Origin: Opitutales bacterium
Lineage (GTDB): Bacteria; Verrucomicrobiota; Verrucomicrobiia; Opitutales; PNEW01
Assembly (NCBI GenBank): GCA_965197745.1
Contig: CBDANS010000004.1
Span: 96,001-160,000, forward strand
Length of the DNA: 64,000 nucleotides
Direction of reading: 5' to 3'
Shown: in pieces, positions 4,162 to 62,055 of the stretch
Layout of the letters: each line of letters opens with the position of its first letter
Numbering within the stretch: the first letter of the stretch is position 1
Notes under the pieces: model-generated
The model's input: the letters and a program-made list of their open reading frames with translations, nothing else
Database searches by the model: none
What the model was told of the DNA's origin: nothing
Translations under genes and position numbers: made by a program

Positions 4162-4248
4162 GCCGAGGTGGCGGAATTGGCAGACGCGCTAGGTTCAGGA
4201 TCTAGTACTCGCAAGGGTGTGAGGGTTCGAGTCCCTCTCTCGGCACCA
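4162..4248 (+). tRNA. tRNA-Leu(CAG)
   Basis: Acceptor GCCGAGG/TCTCGGC+ACCA, D-loop GGAATTGGCAGAC, anticodon arm CTAGG-TTCAGGA-TCTAG, long variable arm, GGTTCGAGTCC T-arm, encoded CCA. Confidence 0.96.
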
Positions 4249-4305
4249 TTATTTATCGACATTTTGTCAAGATTTGCTAATTTGAGTTAGCAAATCATGA
4301 TCTAG

Positions 4306-5296
4306 ATGGCGAAACAAAGATTTAAAATCAACAAGTTTACCAACCCGGGTGGGTCAGAAGCCTGGCGTTTATCCGGTACCCTAAATAGTAAGCAAATTCG
4401 CAAGAATTTCAAGTCCCGAAACGATGCCGTCGCCGAGCGTCAACAGTTATCGATCCGCTATTTAAACGAACAATCAGAAGGGCAGACGGTTTGGACCACG
4501 CTGACCCACGGGCAGAACAAAGAGGCCATTGCAGCTATTAATCTTCTTAAGCAAACCAACTCCAATAAGCCTCTCACCTTTGCTGTTAACTATTTCTTAG
4601 AGCATTATAAAGAAGCCGCCGAGACAATGACAATCGAAGAAGCCGTCCGAGAGTATTGCGATCATAAATCCAAGGAAATGGAGCGTGGTATCATCTCATT
4701 TTGCCAAGAGCAGGGCATTATTCGTGAGATGAAAAAGCTAAAACGCTATTTCGCGGGGCGGATAGTGAATGAAATTCAACCTGTTGAGTTGAATACTTAC
4801 CTCGACACACGACACGGTCGCTCAAAGGCAGTGCTCACCCTTAAAACCTGGAATAACCGCCGTGGATACCTAAGCACCTTTTTCAAGTACTGCGTGGCGA
4901 AAAAATATATAGGAGAAAACCCGATCCTGGAAGTTCCCCAGTATAAAATTAAACATCGCAGGGGAAGCGCCGAGATTCTCTCTGCTCGTGAAGCAGCCGA
5001 GCTGATGGAGTGGCTGGAAACCTATCGGGGCAAGCAGAACAGGGACGGGACCTGGTGGGGAGACCCCGGGTGCATGGTGCCCTATTTTGCATTGGCCCTG
5101 TTTGCAGGAATCAGACCCGACTGGAAGCATGGTGAAATGAGCAAACTCAAGCCCAAGCACATCCGCATGGATACCGGGGTTATCCTTATCGAACCGGAGG
5201 TCTCGAAAGTTAAGGAAAAGCGTGCCATTAAAATCCAACCCAACCTTAGTCTGTGGCTGGAGAAGTATCCACCTGCCCTCTACCCGATCATCCCAA
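4306..5296 (+). pseudogene. Tyrosine recombinase/integrase truncated by IS3 insertion
   Basis: FAGIRP catalytic Arg and SKVK present; HxxR and Tyr motifs missing; the last 17 aa of the ORF (MVVTTKTG...) are read from the IS left end. Confidence 0.88.
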
Positions 5297-6614
5297 TGGT
5301 CGTGACCACGAAAACTGGTCCACTTGAAAAGTTAGTCTGGTCCAACTAGAAAGGACACAGACAATGAAAGGCAAAAGATACACGACCGAAGAGAAAATAC
5401 GGATGCTGCGCCAGGCGGACAAAGGGAAAACGATCCTGGAAGCATGCCGCGAGAACAACATAAGCGAACAGACCTTCCACCGCTGGAAACGTGAGTTTGG
5501 GATGATTGATGTCAACCAGGCCAAGCGGATGAAGGAGCTCTTTGAAGGAGAACGCGCGGTTAAAACGGATGCTGGCGGACAAGATGCTGGGGATAGAGAT
5601 CCTGCAGGAGACCCTCGAAAAAAAACTGTAAGCCCTGGGCACAAGCGGCAAGTGGCAGAGAGACTTGTGACTCGGGGCCAGTGTTCGATGCGAGCGGGGT
5701 GCCGGTACTTTCGGCTGCACCGTTCCACCTATGCGTATAGGGCCAAGCATCCGGATGCCTGGCTAACGAAACTAAAAGCGGCAGTAAGGCGGTTATCACG
5801 GCAATACGCGAGGTGGGGCTATCCCAAGATCACGAAGCTGTTGAAGGACGAAGGCTGGCAGGTGGGTAAACGTCTCGTGCAAGGTCTGCGACGTGAACTG
5901 GGTCTGGCGATCCCCCCACGCAAGCCAAGACGCCGGCGCAGGGGTGTCTGCACCGGGCTACCGACAAAGGCCGAACATCCCGACCATGTTTGGACCTGGG
6001 ATTTTATCCACGATAAGACGGTTCGCGGCGGCAGTCTAAAAATGCTGACCGTGCTCGATGAGTACACCCGCGAGTGCCGGGTGATCCATGTTGATCGCCA
6101 TATCAATGCGGAAACGGTGCGCGGTATCATGCAAAAACTGCTCGACCGGCATGGGCCGCCAAAATATATTCGTAGCGACAACGGTTCCGTTCCGAGGAGC
6201 GAAGCGACGACATGCAAAGCCATTCATTGAAAGCCAATTGAGAGCCTGGCTAACTGCGATGAAAATCAAAACCCTCTATATCGAACCAGCAAGCCCTTGG
6301 CAGAACGGATACATTGAATCGTTCCATGCCCGTTTTCGCGAGGAGTGTTTAAACCGTGAACAGTTATGGACTTTGACCGAAGCCCGCGTGGTCATCGAAG
6401 ATTGGCGCTGGCTTTACAATCATGTCCGACCCCACCGCAGCCTCGGCAACATCACTCCACGGCACTTCACTGAAAACCTCAATACCGAAGGCTCGGGCTC
6501 CATTCGGGCTACGCCCTCATTGCGCCCAAGCCTTGACTTCCTCTACCAACTTAACTTCAACATTAACCTCTCCAGACTAACTCTCCCTGTGGACCAGTTT
6601 GTGTAACCCGACCA
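5297..6614 (+). mobile_element. IS3-family element, variant A, copy 1 (1318 bp, carries 31-bp core insert)
   Basis: TG..CA ends with IRs TGGTCGTGACCACGAAAACTGGTCCAC / GTGGACCAGTTTGTGTAACCCGACCA; OrfA HTH, A8 slippery run, WTWDF/SDNG/IESF DDE motifs. Confidence 0.95.
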
Positions 6615-6676
6615 GAGTCCTTTCTAGGTTACCCAGACTAACTTTTCAAGTGTACCAGTTTTCGTGGTCACGACCA
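6615..6676 (-). mobile_element. 62-bp left-end fragment of IS3 variant B, inverted
   Basis: Reverse complement equals 42312-42373 (GGTACAC, GGGTAACC, GGACTC diagnostic of variant B). Confidence 0.92.
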
Positions 6677-7145
6677 TACGGAGTATTATCTATCCTCAAG
6701 ATATTGTTATTTCGCTAATTTACTGCGCCCTGCATATTTCAGTGCTTATCATTCTATTGAATGTATGGCGAAGGGATTCTTAGAGTTTAAAAACCCTAAG
6801 ATTGATGGTGAATCCTACGGACATAATTGGAGTCATATATTTAAAGATTTGATAAAACATTATCCTAAAGCAAAATATATATCCATCCCTGATTATATGA
6901 TTAAAGAAATCAGCTATTTATCAATCAGATACCCGAAAGGCACATTACTAGTTGCACCTACTAATTTTGTTAATGATGTAGACAAGCGTTTTTTATCAAT
7001 GATTCAACTAGTCTCTCCAAATGATCTAAAGTGGCTAGAAAATATTATTGATGAAAAGGAGGAAATAACACCGGGATTATTTAGCCGCGACAATCTCTAC
7101 AAACAAAATTTTATTAATTACTTTAGAGGTAGTGGGGGTAGTTAA
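6677..7145 (+). pseudogene. AT-rich hypothetical gene, 5'-truncated at the IS junction
   Basis: Frame of ORF 6765..7145 stays open upstream right to the IS end. Confidence 0.55.
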
Positions 7146-39240: not shown

Positions 39241-39331
39241 CTATTATAATATATACCAATGGTTTATAATATTCCTTCCCAATTATTGACAAAATTGCTT
39301 GCAAGTAAGCATGATTGAGGCATTAGTGTAC

Positions 39332-40588
39332 ATGATGCAGGCAACTGAAGGAAAACATAAAAAATTTAGTCCCCTTAATTCCTGGGAACACCCCAAAAAA
39401 AGTTCTATCAAAGTAAGGGAAGTCATCAACCGTAACGCCGGTGACGATTACGGATTTTCCTACCAGGTCTTCATTCCCTCGAAGTTAGCCGGCAAGCGAA
39501 TCAGAAAACAGTTCAAGCATAAAGATGCCGCTTTTGCATGGGCAAAAGAACAACACGAACAATTGCTCCAATACGGGCAGCATCATTATAACCTGGACTA
39601 TAACCAATTAAGGGATGCATTCAATGCGCTCGAAAAACTTGAAGGTTTCGACATTACCCTCTCAGAGGCAGCGGAGTTTGCAAAGATCCATTTGCATCCC
39701 CTTGCCGGTGATATCTCAGTGTTGGAATTGACGGCAATAATGATTGAAGAAAAGGAGAAACAGAACCTGCGCGCCCGTTCCATTAATGATATCCGCTCAC
39801 GGATGGGAATCTTTTCAAGAAGCTTTGGGAGACGACTGGTCAAAGAGATTTCACAGTCGGAAATAGAGGAGTGGCTCAATACCCTCAGTGCCCTCTCGAT
39901 GAGGAGTATTATAAACTACCGCTTGTGCTTAAGCTCCTTTTTTAACTATGCCGTCACCCAGGGCTACCGGATCGATAATCCCGTGACGAGAATCCCTATG
40001 CCTAAAATAGACTGGAAGCCCCCTGTCATTCTCAAAGTCACTCAAGCGGAAGACTTGGTATTGCATGCGGCAAAGACCGATGAAGAAAAGGGGCTTTTGC
40101 CTGTGGTCGCATTAGGACTGTTCGCAGGTTTAAGGAGCACTGAAATCTCGCGGCTTGACTGGTCGGCGATCGACCTGGAGCGCAAGTTACTGACGGTTGG
40201 GCCACAGATAGCTAAGAAGCGCCAGTTAAGGGTGGTTGATCTAATGGACAATTGTGTGGCGTGGCTGCAGAGGTGTGATCAAAAGACAGGGCGTATATCA
40301 CCAACCAATTATTTTAAAAGCTTTGCAGAACTTACCAGACAAGCGGGCCTCGCCAAGTGGGGGGAAAAATACAGTAATGCGATGCGCCACAGCTTCGGCA
40401 GCTACTATTATGCGCTGACAAGTGATGCGGGTAAAACAGCAGCGATGCTGGGCCATAAATCGAACGACCAGGTGCTATTTGATCACTACCGAAGCCTGGT
40501 GGGCAGATCGGAGGGGGAAAAGTATTTCTCAATCCTACCGGCAGATAAAGAGCAAACGGTTGTCGCATTTAAACCTTTAGATAAGTAG
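39332..40588 (+). CDS. Tyrosine recombinase/integrase, apparently intact
   Basis: FAGLRSTE, AKKR, NAMRHSFGSY, LGH, DHYR catalytic residues. Confidence 0.92.
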   Translation: MMQATEGKHKKFSPLNSWEHPKKSSIKVREVINRNAGDDYGFSYQVFIPSKLAGKRIRKQFKHKDAAFAWAKEQHEQLLQYGQHHYNLDYNQLRDAFNALEKLEGFDITLSEAAEFAKIHLHPLAGDISVLELTAIMIEEKEKQNLRARSINDIRSRMGIFSRSFGRRLVKEISQSEIEEWLNTLSALSMRSIINYRLCLSSFFNYAVTQGYRIDNPVTRIPMPKIDWKPPVILKVTQAEDLVLHAAKTDEEKGLLPVVALGLFAGLRSTEISRLDWSAIDLERKLLTVGPQIAKKRQLRVVDLMDNCVAWLQRCDQKTGRISPTNYFKSFAELTRQAGLAKWGEKYSNAMRHSFGSYYYALTSDAGKTAAMLGHKSNDQVLFDHYRSLVGRSEGEKYFSILPADKEQTVVAFKPLDK

Positions 40589-40858: not shown

Positions 40859-42145
40859 TGGTCGTGACCACGAAAACTGGTCCACTTGAAAAGTTAGTCT
40901 GGTCCAACTAGAAAGGACACAGACAATGAAAGGCAAAAGATACACGACCGAAGAGAAAATACGGATGCTGCGCCAGGCGGACAAAGGGAAAACGATCCTG
41001 GAAGCATGCCGCGAGAACAACATAAGCGAACAGACCTTCCACCGCTGGAAACGTGAGTTTGGGATGATTGATGTCAACCAGGCCAAGCGGATGAAGGAGC
41101 TCTTTGAAGGAGAACGCGCGGTTAAAACGGATGCTGGCGGACAAGATGCTGGGGATAGAGATCCTGCAGGAGACCCTCGAAAAAAAACTGTAAGCCCTGG
41201 GCACAAGCGGCAAGTGGCAGAGAGACTTGTGACTCGGGGCCAGTGTTCGATGCGAGCGGGGTGCCGGTACTTTCGGCTGCACCGTTCCACCTATGCGTAT
41301 AGGGCCAAGCATCCGGATGCCTGGCTAACGAAACTAAAAGCGGCAGTAAGGCGGTTATCACGGCAATACGCGAGGTGGGGCTATCCCAAGATCACGAAGC
41401 TGTTGAAGGACGAAGGCTGGCAGGTGGGTAAACGTCTCGTGCAAGGTCTGCGACGTGAACTGGGTCTGGCGATCCCCCCACGCAAGCCAAGACGCCGGCG
41501 CAGGGGTGTCTGCACCGGGCTACCGACAAAGGCCGAACATCCCGACCATGTTTGGACCTGGGATTTTATCCACGATAAGACGGTTCGCGGCGGCAGTCTA
41601 AAAATGCTGACCGTGCTCGATGAGTACACCCGCGAGTGCCGGGTGATCCATGTTGATCGCCATATCAATGCGGAAACGGTGCGCGGTATCATGCAAAAAC
41701 TGCTCGACCGGCATGGGCCGCCAAAATATATTCGTAGCGACAACGGTTCCGAGTTTATTGAAAGCCAATTGAGAGCCTGGCTAACTGCGATGAAAATCAA
41801 AACCCTCTATATCGAACCAGCAAGCCCTTGGCAGAACGGATACATTGAATCGTTCCATGCCCGTTTTCGCGAGGAGTGTTTAAACCGTGAACAGTTATGG
41901 ACTTTGACCGAAGCCCGCGTGGTCATCGAAGATTGGCGCTGGCTTTACAATCATGTCCGACCCCACCGCAGCCTCGGCAACATCACTCCACGGCACTTCA
42001 CTGAAAACCTCAATACCGAAGGCTCGGGCTCCATTCGGGCTACGCCCTCATTGCGCCCAAGCCTTGACTTCCTCTACCAACTTAACTTCAACATTAACCT
42101 CTCCAGACTAACTCTCCCGGTGGACCAGTTTGTGTAACCCGACCA
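40859..42145 (+). mobile_element. IS3-family element, variant A, copy 2 (1287 bp, no core insert; continuous 403-aa ORF)
   Basis: Same IRs and nearly the same sequence as 5297-6614; SDNGSEFIES intact. Confidence 0.95.
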
Positions 42146-42311: not shown

Positions 42312-43629
42312 TGGTCGTGACCACGAAAACTGGTACACTTGAAAAGTTAGTCTGGGTAACCTAGAAAGGACTCAGACAATGAAAGGCAAAAGATACACAA
42401 CTGAAGAGAAAATACGGATGCTGCGGCAGGCGGACAAAGGGAAAACGATCCTGGAAGCATGCCGCGAGAACAACATTAGCGAACAGACTTTCCACCGCTG
42501 GAAGCGTGAGTTTGGGATGATTGATGTCGACCAGGCCAAGCGGATGAAGGAACTCTTTGAAGGAGAACGCGCGGTTAAAACGGATGCTGGCGGACAAGAT
42601 GCTGGGGATAGAGATCCTGCAGGAGACCCTCGAAAAAAAACTGTAAGCCCTGGGCACAAGCGGCAAGTGGCAGAGAGACTTGTGGCTCGGGGCCAGTGTT
42701 CGATGCGAGCGGGGTGCCGGTACTTTCGGCTGCACCGTTCCACCTATGCGTATAAGGCGAAGCATCCGGATGCTTGGTTAATGAAACTGAAGGCGGCAGT
42801 AAGGCGGTTATCACGGCAATATGCCAGGTGGGGCTATCCGAAGATCACGAAGCTGTTGAAAGACGAAGGCTGGGAGGTGGGTAAACGTCTCGTGCAAGGT
42901 CTACGACGCGAACTGGGCTTGGCGATCCCCCAACGCAAGCCAAGACGTCGGGGCAGGGGTGTTTCCACCGGGCTGCCGACCAAGGCCGAACATCCCGGCC
43001 ATGTTTGGACCTGGGATTTTATCCACGATAAGACGGTCCGCGGTGGCAGTTTAAAAATGTTGACCGTGCTCGATGAGTACACCCGCGAGTGTCGAGTGAT
43101 CCATGTTGATCGCCATATCAATGCGGAAACGGTGCGCGGTATCATGCAAAAACTGCTTGCCCGTCATGGGCCGCCACAATATATTCGCAGTGACAACGGT
43201 TCCGTTCCGAGGAGCGAAGCGACGACATGCGAAGCCATTCATTGAAAAGGAATTGAGAGCCTGGCTAACTGCGATGAAAATCAAAACCCTCTATATCGAA
43301 CCAGGAAGCCCTTGGCAGAACGGATACATCGAATCGTTGCATGCCCGTTTTCGCGAGGAGTGTTTAAACCGTGAACAGCTATGGACTTTGACCGAAGCCC
43401 GCGTGGTGATCGAGGACTGGCGCTGGCTTTACAATAATGTCCGACCCCACCGCAGCCTCGGCAATATCACCCCACGGTGCTTCGCTGAAGACATTAATAC
43501 CGAAGGCTTGGGCTCCATTCGGGCTACGCCCTCATTGCGCCCAAGCCTTGACTTCCTCTACCAACTTAACTTCAACATTAACCTCTCCAGACTAACTCTC
43601 TCGGTGGACCAGTTTACGTAACCCGATCA
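42312..43629 (+). mobile_element. IS3-family element, variant B, copy 3 (carries 31-bp core insert)
   Basis: IRL TGGTCGTGACCACGAAAACTGGTACAC, IRR ..GTTTACGTAACCCGATCA; scattered substitutions relative to variant A. Confidence 0.95.
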
Positions 43630-58342: not shown

Positions 58343-59660
58343 TGATCGGGTTACGTAAACTGGTCCACCGAGAGAGTTAGTCTGGAGAGGTTAATGTTGA
58401 AGTTAAGTTGGTAGAGGAAGTCAAGGCTTGGGCGCAATGAGGGCGTAGCCCGAATGGAGCCCAAGCCTTCGGTATTAATGTCTTCAGCGAAGCACCGTGG
58501 GGTGATATTGCCGAGGCTGCGGTGGGGTCGGACATTATTGTAAAGCCAGCGCCAGTCCTCGATCACCACGCGGGCTTCGGTCAAAGTCCATAGCTGTTCA
58601 CGGTTTAAACACTCCTCGCGAAAACGGGCATGCAACGATTCGATGTATCCGTTCTGCCAAGGGCTTCCTGGTTCGATATAGAGGGTTTTGATTTTCATCG
58701 CAGTTAGCCAGGCTCTCAATTCCTTTTCAATGAATGGCTTCGCATGTCGTCGCTTCGCTCCTCGGAACGGAACCGTTGTCACTGCGAATATATTGTGGCG
58801 GCCCATGACGGGCAAGCAGTTTTTGCATGATACCGCGCACCGTTTCCGCATTGATATGGCGATCAACATGGATCACTCGACACTCGCGGGTGTACTCATC
58901 GAGCACGGTCAACATTTTTAAACTGCCACCGCGGACCGTCTTATCGTGGATAAAATCCCAGGTCCAAACATGGCCGGGATGTTCGGCCTTGGTCGGCAGC
59001 CCGGTGGAAACACCCCTGCCCCGACGTCTTGGCTTGCGTTGGGGGATCGCCAAGCCCAGTTCGCGTCGTAGACCTTGCACGAGACGTTTACCCACCTCCC
59101 AGCCTTCGTCTTTCAACAGCTTCGTGATCTTCGGATAGCCCCACCTGGCATATTGCCGTGATAACCGCCTTACTGCCGCCTTCAGTTTCATTAACCAAGC
59201 ATCCGGATGCTTCGCCTTATACGCATAGGTGGAACGGTGCAGCCGAAAGTACCGGCACCCCGCTCGCATCGAACACTGGCCCCGAGCCACAAGTCTCTCT
59301 GCCACTTGCCGCTTGTGCCCAGGGCTTACAGTTTTTTTTCGAGGGTCTCCTGCAGGATCTCTATCCCCAGCATCTTGTCCGCCAGCATCCGTTTTAACCG
59401 CGCGTTCTCCTTCAAAGAGTTCCTTCATCCGCTTGGCCTGGTCGACATCAATCATCCCAAACTCACGCTTCCAGCGGTGGAAAGTCTGTTCGCTAATGTT
59501 GTTCTCGCGGCATGCTTCCAGGATCGTTTTCCCTTTGTCCGCCTGCCGCAGCATCCGTATTTTCTCTTCAGTTGTGTATCTTTTGCCTTTCATTGTCTGA
59601 GTCCTTTCTAGGTTACCCAGACTAACTTTTCAAGTGTACCAGTTTTCGTGGTCACGACCA
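58343..59660 (-). mobile_element. IS3-family element, variant B, copy 4 (carries core insert)
   Basis: Reverse complement of 42312-43629; identical ORF translations. Confidence 0.95.
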
Positions 59661-61497: not shown

Positions 61498-62055
61498 TGA
61501 ATACACGCGTCAATGTCTGGATATCAGAGTAGCTCGTCAACTCACCTCTAAGGACATCCGCACTGTTCTCAGCAAGACCATTGAAAAAGAGGGTGTTTCC
61601 AGCTATATCCGTAGTGACAACGGCAGTGAGTTCATTGCTCATCAAGTGCAGCAGTGGTTATCCAACAAAAAGATCAAGGCGATCTATAGCGATCCGGGCA
61701 GTCCCTGGCTACCGAGCGAAGCGACTCCTCAACGAGCGATAGCGAGAATAACAAACGGTTTCATCGAGTCATTTCACAACCGCTTACCCGATGAGTCTTT
61801 GAACCGTGAAGTGTTGCTCAGCGTGGCTGAAGCCCAATGGGTAATCGAACAATGGCGTCAGACCTACAATAATGAACATCCCTACAGTCATTTAGGCTTT
61901 AATAGCCCACAAGAGTTTGTCAGATTCCTTTCCGATCCTGGCGAAGTGAGGGCGTAGCCCGAACGTGGCCAGGATCTCTCCTATTCATCAACCCTAAAAC
62001 CATTAATCCCCGATACTCTTTAACTTAAACGTATACAAATAATGGAGCCCGATCA
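61492..62055 (+). mobile_element. 3' remnant of a different IS3-family element
   Basis: IDEYTRQC, IRSDNGSEF, NGFIESFH, YNNEHPYSHLG; right end ..GAGCCCGATCA. Confidence 0.88.

Follow-up and report, generated by a model that had tools for sequence, protein, structure and literature searches.

Very small gene-less inserts in the IS3 transposase genes of an Opitutales bacterium are probably site-specific insertion modules

We analysed a 64,000-nucleotide (nt) stretch of DNA from an Opitutales bacterium (assembly GCA_965197745.1, contig CBDANS010000004.1, positions 96,001 to 160,000), here called the window, which holds four copies of an insertion sequence (IS) of the IS3 family. An earlier reading made without database searches, the sequence-only reading, had noticed a short insert in the transposase gene of three of these copies that was missing from a near-identical fourth. 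We call this insert module t1 and speak of filled and empty copies according to its presence; t2 to t4 are sister modules introduced below, and ORF stands for open reading frame. The features that bear on the insert are as follows.

5297..6614, plus strand: IS3 copy 1 (variant A), filled; its ORF, 5364-6230, ends with a TGA directly 3' of the t1 module
6190..6222, plus strand: t1 module of copy 1, 33 nt, with second mini-hairpin GCAAAGC, replacing the AG of the SDNGSEF Glu codon
40859..42145, plus strand: IS3 copy 2 (variant A), complete and empty, with an unbroken 403-codon ORF at 40926-42137
41752..41753, plus strand: AG dinucleotide of the empty target in copy 2 (GGTTCCG-AG-TTTATT), lost in filled copies
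42312..43629, plus strand: IS3 copy 3 (variant B), filled, 94% identical to variant A
43205..43237, plus strand: t1 module of copy 3, GCGAAGC form
58343..59660, minus strand: IS3 copy 4 (variant B), filled, an inverted copy of copy 3 with 100% identity over 1318 nt
58735..58767, minus strand: t1 module of copy 4, 33-nt unit
about 61710..61752, plus strand: sister module t2 (TACCGAGCGAAGCGAC...AATAACA), located at PW-Q-NG in a further IS3-like gene fragment; its end is inferred from the 43-nt unit length

In filled copies the Glu codon within SDNGS-E-F has lost its AG to the t1 module (TTCCGAGGAGCGAAGCGACGACATGCRAAGCCA, 33 nt), for a net gain of 31 nt. At this point copy 2 reads AACGGTTCCG AG TTTATTGAA (41742-41762, AACGGTTCCGAGTTTATTGAA), which encodes SDNGSEFIE, where copies 1, 3 and 4 have TTCCGAGGAGCGAAGCGACGACATGC(A/G)AAGCCA. 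A 22-nt core of the module, GAGGAGCGAAGCGACGACATGC, occurs three times in the window (6194-6215 and 43209-43230 on the plus strand, 58742-58763 on the minus strand) and was absent from 100 shuffles. The core matches, together with the empty site of copy 2, thus bear out the presence of the insert in three copies and its absence from the fourth. The net gain also shifts the frame just past the second catalytic Asp, as had been claimed, and in copy 1, as a member of family A, the transposase frame meets its TGA stop 13 codons beyond SDNGS. Copies 3 and 4, which had been taken to have been duplicated along with the insert, are inverted relative to each other and completely identical. The further claim, that the only substitution in the unit falls in a mini-hairpin loop, holds within the window, where the units differ only by A/G at 6216, inside the second GC-NNN-GC; it fails genome-wide, as other t1 units show further substitutions.

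On each side of the insert site, copies 1 and 2 agree at 100% of positions along a stretch of 300 nt, and a blastn comparison of copy 1 with the copy 2 region gives 100% identity over 893 nt and 99.5% over 395 nt. Beside the insert, copy 1 has TTC and copy 2 has TTT. In contigs from other samples the empty form occurs both as CCG-AG-TTC and as CCG-AGTTT-ATT; because TTC-bearing empty alleles exist, we regard TTC/TTT as a polymorphism separate from the insert. Copy 1 had been drawn to 6677, which proved too long: the right end of the IS (..CCCGACCA) lies at 6614, and the 62 nt that follow (6615-6677) are an inverted solo IS3 left-end fragment, 100% identical to the left end of variant B. Copy 2 is therefore complete. 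The fragment at 6615-6677 resembles the remnant of a nested or adjacent insertion. The translation of copy 2 and the homologous loci show the hallmarks of the IS3 family, namely a helix-turn-helix (HTH) orfA, a DDE-type orfB with SDNGxEF, and ends TGGTCG..CGACCA. In the family-A copies seen, the HTH part of orfA shares its frame with orfB to give one 403-codon ORF, a leucine-zipper-like orfA end (ENARLKRMLADKMLGIEILQETLEKKL, then a stop) lies in the +1 frame, and the usual A-rich shift site precedes orfB.

The source genome (G000; whole assembly of 4.45 Mb in 7 contigs) contains 73 copies of t1, all singlets and all directly after the SDNG(S) codons of IS3 orfB. Its carriers are family A (variants A and B, 94% identical), relatives at 68-91% protein identity, and family B at 40%. 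Across these lineages the unit is virtually invariant (~100% conserved), and its immediate flanks differ between lineages: GGTTCC, GGCAGT, GGATCG, GGTTCG, GGTTGC or GATTCG on the left, TTC, TTT, TTA and so on to the right. By six-frame scan, 73 IRSDNG.[EQ]F sites are filled and 12 are empty, the latter including four identical family-A copies at unrelated loci and five B-type sites. In 15 variant-B copies nothing else breaks the frame: the unit has 287 open codons to one side and 127 to the other.

Recurrent BLAST breakpoints in the IS3 genes of this genome revealed three further inserts of like build, each occupying a different conserved Glu or Gln codon of the enzyme.

t4: 32 copies at ID-E-YTR, just past the first catalytic Asp; 43 nt replace AA (+41), with an in-frame TGA
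t2: 12 copies at PW-Q-NG; CAG or CAA replaced, most copies in frame (LPSEATPQRAKARIT)
t3: 16 copies at RD-E-C; GAG replaced (+35), with an in-frame TAG

All four modules start with (G/C)T(T/A)CCGAG, contain GC-NNN-GCGAC and end in CA. Taken with the forms found elsewhere, they are gene-less units of 28-51 nt with a conserved 5' part, (S)T-W-CCGAG-(G)AGC-NNN-GCGAC(GAC), that includes a GC-NNN-GC mini-hairpin, and a variable 3' part that includes a second, GNA-capped hairpin. The loop triplet of the first hairpin is free (GAA, GCA, GTA, GGA, AAA, AAC, ACA or ATA) and its GC..GC stem is kept; a recurrent subfamily shows a double change, G..C to A..T, in this hairpin. The second hairpin varies in length and sequence and keeps its pairing and its GNA cap, so that between two IS5 copies, for example, GAC-GAG-GTC becomes GCC-GAA-GGC. 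The consensus fold comprises a CCGG/CCGG and a CGC/GCG stem. A loose pattern for the 5' module matches the source genome 187 times, 132 of them in IS3 genes. Most of the matches outside IS3 belong to a dispersed family of ~35 copies, CTACCGAGCGCAGCGACATCTTCCATTCCAGG (for example at C6:116619 and C7:745861), which reads ..GACGCGG-CTACCGAGCGCAGCGAC-ATCTTCCATTCCAGG.. and has its 5' module in common with t2.

Near-identical IS copies in two sister genomes (G001 and G002) differ solely in which of the modules they contain. Seven family-B copies from these genomes align almost base for base and vary in module content: two have none, and the others have t1 only, t4 only, t1 with t2, or a shortened t4. 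The form with t4 only is present in ~35 copies in G002. The same signature separates filled from empty at all eight sites for which an unfilled copy or relative could be aligned (IS3-A; t1, t2 and t4 of IS3-B; t3; IS5, at the protein level; polX; and a REP-like hairpin in genome G051): the preceding base (G or C) is kept, the next two purines (AG or AA) are lost, and TWCC...CA stands in their stead, so that S-AR becomes S-TWCCGAG...CA. In the cases with an empty counterpart, GAA, GAG or CAG is the triplet that was replaced, apart from a GAC in one of the three empty polX species. The target is not duplicated, and the orientation of the module is fixed. The shortened t4 (L099, G002:C2:922733-923390) consists of the 5' part only (~26-28 nt), with the target AA kept and TG on both sides; this half module could be an intermediate or a repair product. 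Filled and empty alleles are both present in other samples as well, as judged from contigs rather than reads.

The module is found outside IS3 genes and outside this genome. An exact search with the 22-nt core in a collection of 185,579 species returned 12 loci in two Opitutales records, 11 of them in one Opitutales metagenome-assembled genome (MAG; the record of G001) and one in a contig of an uncultured Opitutaceae bacterium. An exact 19-nt core was present in 3 of 61 relatives, the 26-nt unit with up to three mismatches in 9 of 401 genomes of the phylum, and the 18-nt 5' module with up to two mismatches in 58 of 101 genomes of one family (f34). Some of these last matches are due to chance, because a reversed control pattern matched in ~19 genomes there. 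The locus in the Opitutaceae contig is an IS5-family transposase gene in which a 45-nt long form has taken the place of the KYEFG Glu codon; a 456-amino acid ORF is left open. The reading KY(VPRSEATTCETRSKP)FG instead of KYEFG occurs in one of eight aligned homologues (873 were found), and a relative 93% identical lacks the insert; a metagenome contig carries a second, diverged IS5 gene with an insert at the same codon. Within genus g70, a 51-nt in-frame module adds the peptide VPRSEATT(S/R)PGAERTGP to polX in some species (L070-L073) and not in others (L075-L077), with four filled and three empty species in the alignment (23 genomes searched). The typical form in f34 is a 51-nt unit, GTTCCGAGGAGC-NNN-GCGACGAC-ARG-ACCGG-hairpin-CCGGACCA, which sits in the D loop of tRNA-like 5' fragments (sense orientation), in the T loop of tRNA-like 3' fragments and in other hairpin loops. 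A single locus of G051 has the empty hairpin CACGGACA-GGAA-TGTCCGTG beside the filled REP-like copy. In metagenome contig L024 (Ga0114994_10135770), a core of 16-19 nt occurs six times as REPIN-like inverted pairs. The insert is thus not restricted to a single clonal lineage, since Opitutales genomes widely contain related inserts, and as far as searched the module family is confined to that order.

Collectively, these observations make it probable that the insert is a very small, gene-less module, non-autonomous and inserted site-specifically, which cuts the transposase short and is carried along by the IS. The sequence-only reading had favoured a site-specific mini-element over random decay, and this half of its proposal gains support from the identical unit at the same codon of IS3 lineages with differing immediate flanks, from the 5' module in an IS5 transposase, in polX, and in tRNA-like and hairpin loops of other genomes, and from the coexistence of filled and empty alleles among near-identical IS copies. 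As read from the sequence, t1 cuts the IS3 transposase past the second catalytic Asp; we infer that filled copies are non-autonomous and multiply via the transposase of intact copies. Under this model, module-bearing IS copies would be multiplied by transposition in trans, modules would be shuffled between IS copies through recombination, and diverged IS lineages would be reached via site-specific insertion of the module itself, perhaps performed by a trans-acting enzyme that reads a folded single strand. DDE, HUH, tyrosine-recombinase and serine-recombinase enzymes are not known to give products like these, with two bases lost, no duplicated target and asymmetric ends.

Several results weigh against this interpretation. 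The shared target, approximately TG-AR-T, is far too short to account for the choice of site, and each of the subtypes t1 to t4 is tied to one site, a pattern that could also result from one insertion event at each site and subsequent spread by homology. The presence/absence combinations among near-identical copies can come from recombination alone, and the unit does recombine, since IS3 chimeras that are family A to the left and family B to the right, or vice versa, have their junction precisely at the t1 unit (four such copies in G001, at least two in G000):

G001: L005, L012, L014 and L020
G000: C6:204088 and C7:1673768

No de novo insertion was observed in the data from other samples, which are contigs and not reads. 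Covariation behind the consensus fold is thin, with 1 of 11 pairs compensated. Nearest-neighbour folding of the region, as RNA or as DNA, was no better than that of shuffles (z from -0.6 to +1.9). Of the 'hairpin-rich' character first ascribed to the insert, then, the two GC-NNN-GC mini-hairpin motifs stand and a general folding propensity does not; standard energy tables do not model the stability of the GCGNAGC mini-hairpin. DNA mini-hairpins of the GCGNAGC type are called extraordinarily stable in the part of a review that treats them (PMC13037366).

Also on this side of the balance, we found no enzyme that would move the modules, having considered genes of the Y1_Tnp type, that is, of REP-associated tyrosine transposases (RAYT), and GIY-YIG genes. 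The sole Y1_Tnp gene of G000 (C6:163380-163706) is flanked by a different repeat: around this RAYT-like gene (L027, G000:C6:161880-165206) lie inverted GGGTCAGACTGCGAAT repeats, present in 9-10 copies in the genome and unrelated to the modules. Co-distribution does not favour RAYT as the mover either, as all four genomes of genus g57 have the module and none has Y1_Tnp; in genus g64, Y1_Tnp is present in 9 of 9 genomes and the module in 4 of 9. The genomes behind both counts are related and thus not independent. ORFs with a Y1_Tnp domain in f34 genomes are ~300-350 amino acids long and number up to 38 copies per genome. As for a small GIY-YIG nuclease of the Ssn type, a module lies within 700 nt of only two of the seven small GIY-YIG genes of G000. 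Pairing of the modules with their flanks in the manner of a guide, assessed by eye, gave a 7/8 match for t1 only (core antisense against GYGACAAC) and nothing for t3 and t4. Rfam yielded no relevant match at E up to 10 in window positions 6100-6320, and only tRNAs across eight module-bearing loci.

The alternative that best survives grants the unit no mobility of its own: one mutational event would have created it at each site, and it would then have spread only by homologous recombination or gene conversion and by transposition of the IS. The binding of each subtype to one site, the chimeras joined exactly at the unit, and the full range of presence/absence combinations among near-identical copies are all in keeping with this, as is the finding that the unit occurs solely in IS3 genes in G000. 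We nevertheless consider it unlikely, because recombination fails to account for identical units in lineages that offer no usable homology: IS lineages at 40-72% protein identity carry the same unit and have their own bases right up to its edges, which would leave conversion anchors of 8 nt and 5-7 nt at most. It fails likewise for the 5' module in other families of the order, where unrelated targets (IS5, polX, tRNA-like loops and hairpins) show the identical replacement of AR. We therefore favour genuine site-specific insertion and prefer to see recombination and IS transposition as amplifiers of modules already inserted.

A second alternative is that the modules are the output of a host- or element-encoded system that sterilises transposases, writing into conserved catalytic motifs to check IS expansion. 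The target list invites this idea: four conserved motifs in a single enzyme (DE-YTR, SDNGS-E-F, PW-Q-NG and RD-E-C) each receive a module of their own, a fifth site lies in the IS5 transposase, 73 of the 85 IRSDNG sites are filled, and the IS3 genes of G000 hold 133 module copies (73, 32, 16 and 12). It becomes decidedly improbable in light of the modules that sit in frame in polX and of those that occur in tRNA-like fragments and intergenic hairpins, and we detected neither linked machinery nor a guide. The modules would be expected to accumulate in IS genes anyway, as insertions there are tolerated and copied with the IS.

A third alternative keeps the gene alive, with the insert as a programmed recoding or splicing signal through which a filled gene still yields active transposase by a +1 shift, a ribosomal hop or RNA excision. 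This is the removable on/off switch that the sequence-only reading had also entertained, and it fared poorly. The +1 frame is open through the unit (FRGAKRRHAKPF), a Shine-Dalgarno-like GAGGAG lies inside it, and many filled copies are otherwise open. However, no single excision regenerates the Glu codon (GAG) of copy 2, in line with the earlier remark that one-step excision falls short. We found no matching take-off and landing pair that resumes at TTC, as the triplet before TTC is CCA and the take-off would be TCC or AGT. One pair alone, GCG..GCG at a distance of 10 nt, suits the frame, and pairs of this sort would arise by chance. A stop in the 0 frame follows GAGGAG after ~30 nt in family A and comes considerably farther downstream in family B, and the ATG behind GAGGAG opens the +2 frame, which is the wrong one. 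Modules t3 and t4 contain stops in frame, and in family B t4 occurs alongside t1; the long forms in IS5 and polX, and t2, are simply in frame; and IS3 genes elsewhere do without the unit. Empty forms, including those in an RNA library, carry the AG and are therefore separate alleles rather than one-splice products of the filled form. The RNA library itself (X15, contigs) contains both forms and is silent on splicing, because transcription and DNA carry-over cannot be separated in it. We regard recoding or splicing as very improbable. That the insert is an assembly or polishing artefact, as a 7-contig assembly rich in near-identical IS copies might suggest, is scarcely credible given its presence in independent assemblies (two sister genomes, an ENA MAG and JGI metagenome contigs) and in Logan contigs of four runs from four studies.

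If the preferred reading, site-specific insertion, is correct, how do the modules relate to systems already described? Translational bypass inserts, as in T4 gene 60 and the yeast mitochondrial 'byp' elements, are hairpin-bearing stretches of tens of nucleotides inside coding sequence; t1 differs from them in that no matching take-off and landing codons were found. The small dispersed repeats (SDR) of cyanobacteria, reportedly described by Elhai and colleagues in 2008, are said to look mobile, to measure 21-27 nt, to sit in hairpins and in other mobile elements and to have no known enzyme; they belong to another phylum and have other sequences. MITEs (miniature transposable elements that carry inverted repeats) and the palindrome-associated transposable elements (PATEs) derived from IS200/IS605 resemble the modules in being non-autonomous, gene-less and dependent on an enzyme acting in trans. 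In contrast to theirs, the ends of the modules (TWCCGAG../..CA) are not inverted, two target bases are lost rather than duplicated, and the units are 3-10 times smaller.

Repetitive extragenic palindromic sequences (REPs) and the REPINs built from them are moved by RAYTs, which are IS200-like Y1 HUH transposases, according to the part of the source that concerns them (Bertels and Rainey 2011, PMC3116915). With REPs and REPINs as portrayed there, the modules share shortness, high GC content, hairpin formation, lack of genes, dispersal within one genome and a fixed 5' tag; the inverted doublets of the core in L024 and the RAYT-like gene in G000 add to the likeness. REPs are extragenic and usually doublets in that account, whereas the modules are singlets in coding sequence, at fixed codons, with two bases replaced; moreover, the RAYT gene of G000 is not flanked by the module and genus g57 has modules without Y1_Tnp. 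Rickettsia palindromic elements (RPE) are palindromic repeats of ~150 bp that lie in frame in unrelated protein genes and add a conserved peptide, as one portion of a further source puts it (PMC10969869). This is matched by the VPRSEATT.. peptide, seen in polX and in the IS5 transposase, and by the LPSEAT.. of t2. The frame is indeed open through the module in the IS5 gene, in polX and in most t2 copies, and not for t1 (+31), t3 (+35, with a stop) or t4 (+41, with a stop). Unlike RPE as characterised in that portion, the modules measure 28-51 nt, those of the window are out of frame and truncating, and the targets are biased to transposase motifs and tRNA-like loops.

Ssn-related motifs (NTS/SRM) are oriented hairpin repeats of 20-50 nt with a tag beside the stem, connected with single-stranded DNA, and the small GIY-YIG nuclease Ssn has been shown to cut and not to insert, in the sections of the paper that bear on this (Chenal et al. 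2025, PMC11893778). Small GIY-YIG genes are present in G000, as in Ssn systems. Judged by eye and without a pattern search, neither strand of the module fits the SRM pattern HGTCWY-hairpin-RNCYNB given in those sections. The modules are of the same general kind as these tiny, gene-less, hairpin-bearing dispersed repeats and yet do not fit the defining features tested for REP/REPIN, MITE, SRM or bypass elements, and fit those of RPE for some module types only. Their insertion signature and target choice are unusual among very small dispersed hairpin repeats. Literature searches, which did not extend to supplementary files, turned up no account of inserts of this sort, whether in IS3 genes or in Opitutales.

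Other identities were considered and set aside. Known plasmid and phage sequences gave only matches of 26-30 nt, to Vibrio phage-plasmids (E 0.02-0.9), and one that we inspected was an ordinary Shine-Dalgarno-ATG region, which we read as chance. The start region of a conserved gene was suggested by CCGAGGAGCGAAGCGACGACATGACC, which is single-copy in five f34 genomes, but the ORFs that begin at its ATG are short and not conserved. The IS3-A target, GGTTCCGAG, does not serve as a mimic of a T loop, being oriented to the module in the opposite way to real T loops. Direct repeats beside the tRNA-linked modules can be read as pre-existing partial tRNA copies. Nor is the module the att scar of an integrase: an integrase element does join IS3 orfB, but ~100 nt downstream of t1, at a direct repeat of its own (CATCGAATCG). 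In G000 the joined elements, each with this 10-nt repeat at both junctions, are found at:

C7:1066385
C6:1180519
C7:1693031
C1:24256

If the modules are truly mobile, a 33-nt sequence finds one codon in enzymes that are only 40% identical, which implies a targeting principle (recognition of a folded single strand, pairing by a guide or a protein with very loose requirements) of a kind not known for REPs, MITEs or IS elements, and possibly a tool. True mobility would also add a parasite-of-parasite layer. In G000, 73 of 85 such catalytic sites in IS3 genes are disabled, so that most IS copies would have become non-autonomous passengers, with effects on IS dynamics and genome stability in symbiont-like Opitutales. 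For annotation, 'frameshifted IS3 pseudogenes' and the extra VPRSEATT peptide of polX and IS5 would then have one cause. A bolder version, in which no smaller site-specific mobile elements have yet been seen in bacteria and the modules, which have no terminal repeats and replace a purine dinucleotide, home to a few conserved Glu/Gln codons and tRNA-type loops through chemistry undescribed for any transposon, moved by a single-strand-reading enzyme or a guide in the 3' part and with a genome-wide role in sterilising IS3 and IS5, is possible but in our view rather doubtful. The system is tractable, as filled and empty alleles occur together in one genome and in public samples.

The window also holds integrase-like genes near two of the IS copies. 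A tRNA-Leu(CAG) gene is followed directly by a tyrosine-integrase-like ORF at 4306-5349 (the two together span 4162-5349), the 3' part of which is interrupted by IS copy 1; the window showed no repeat of this tRNA's 3' end. A second integrase-like ORF at 39299-40588 (429 amino acids), which shares 24% identity with the first, stops 270 nt upstream of the empty copy 2.

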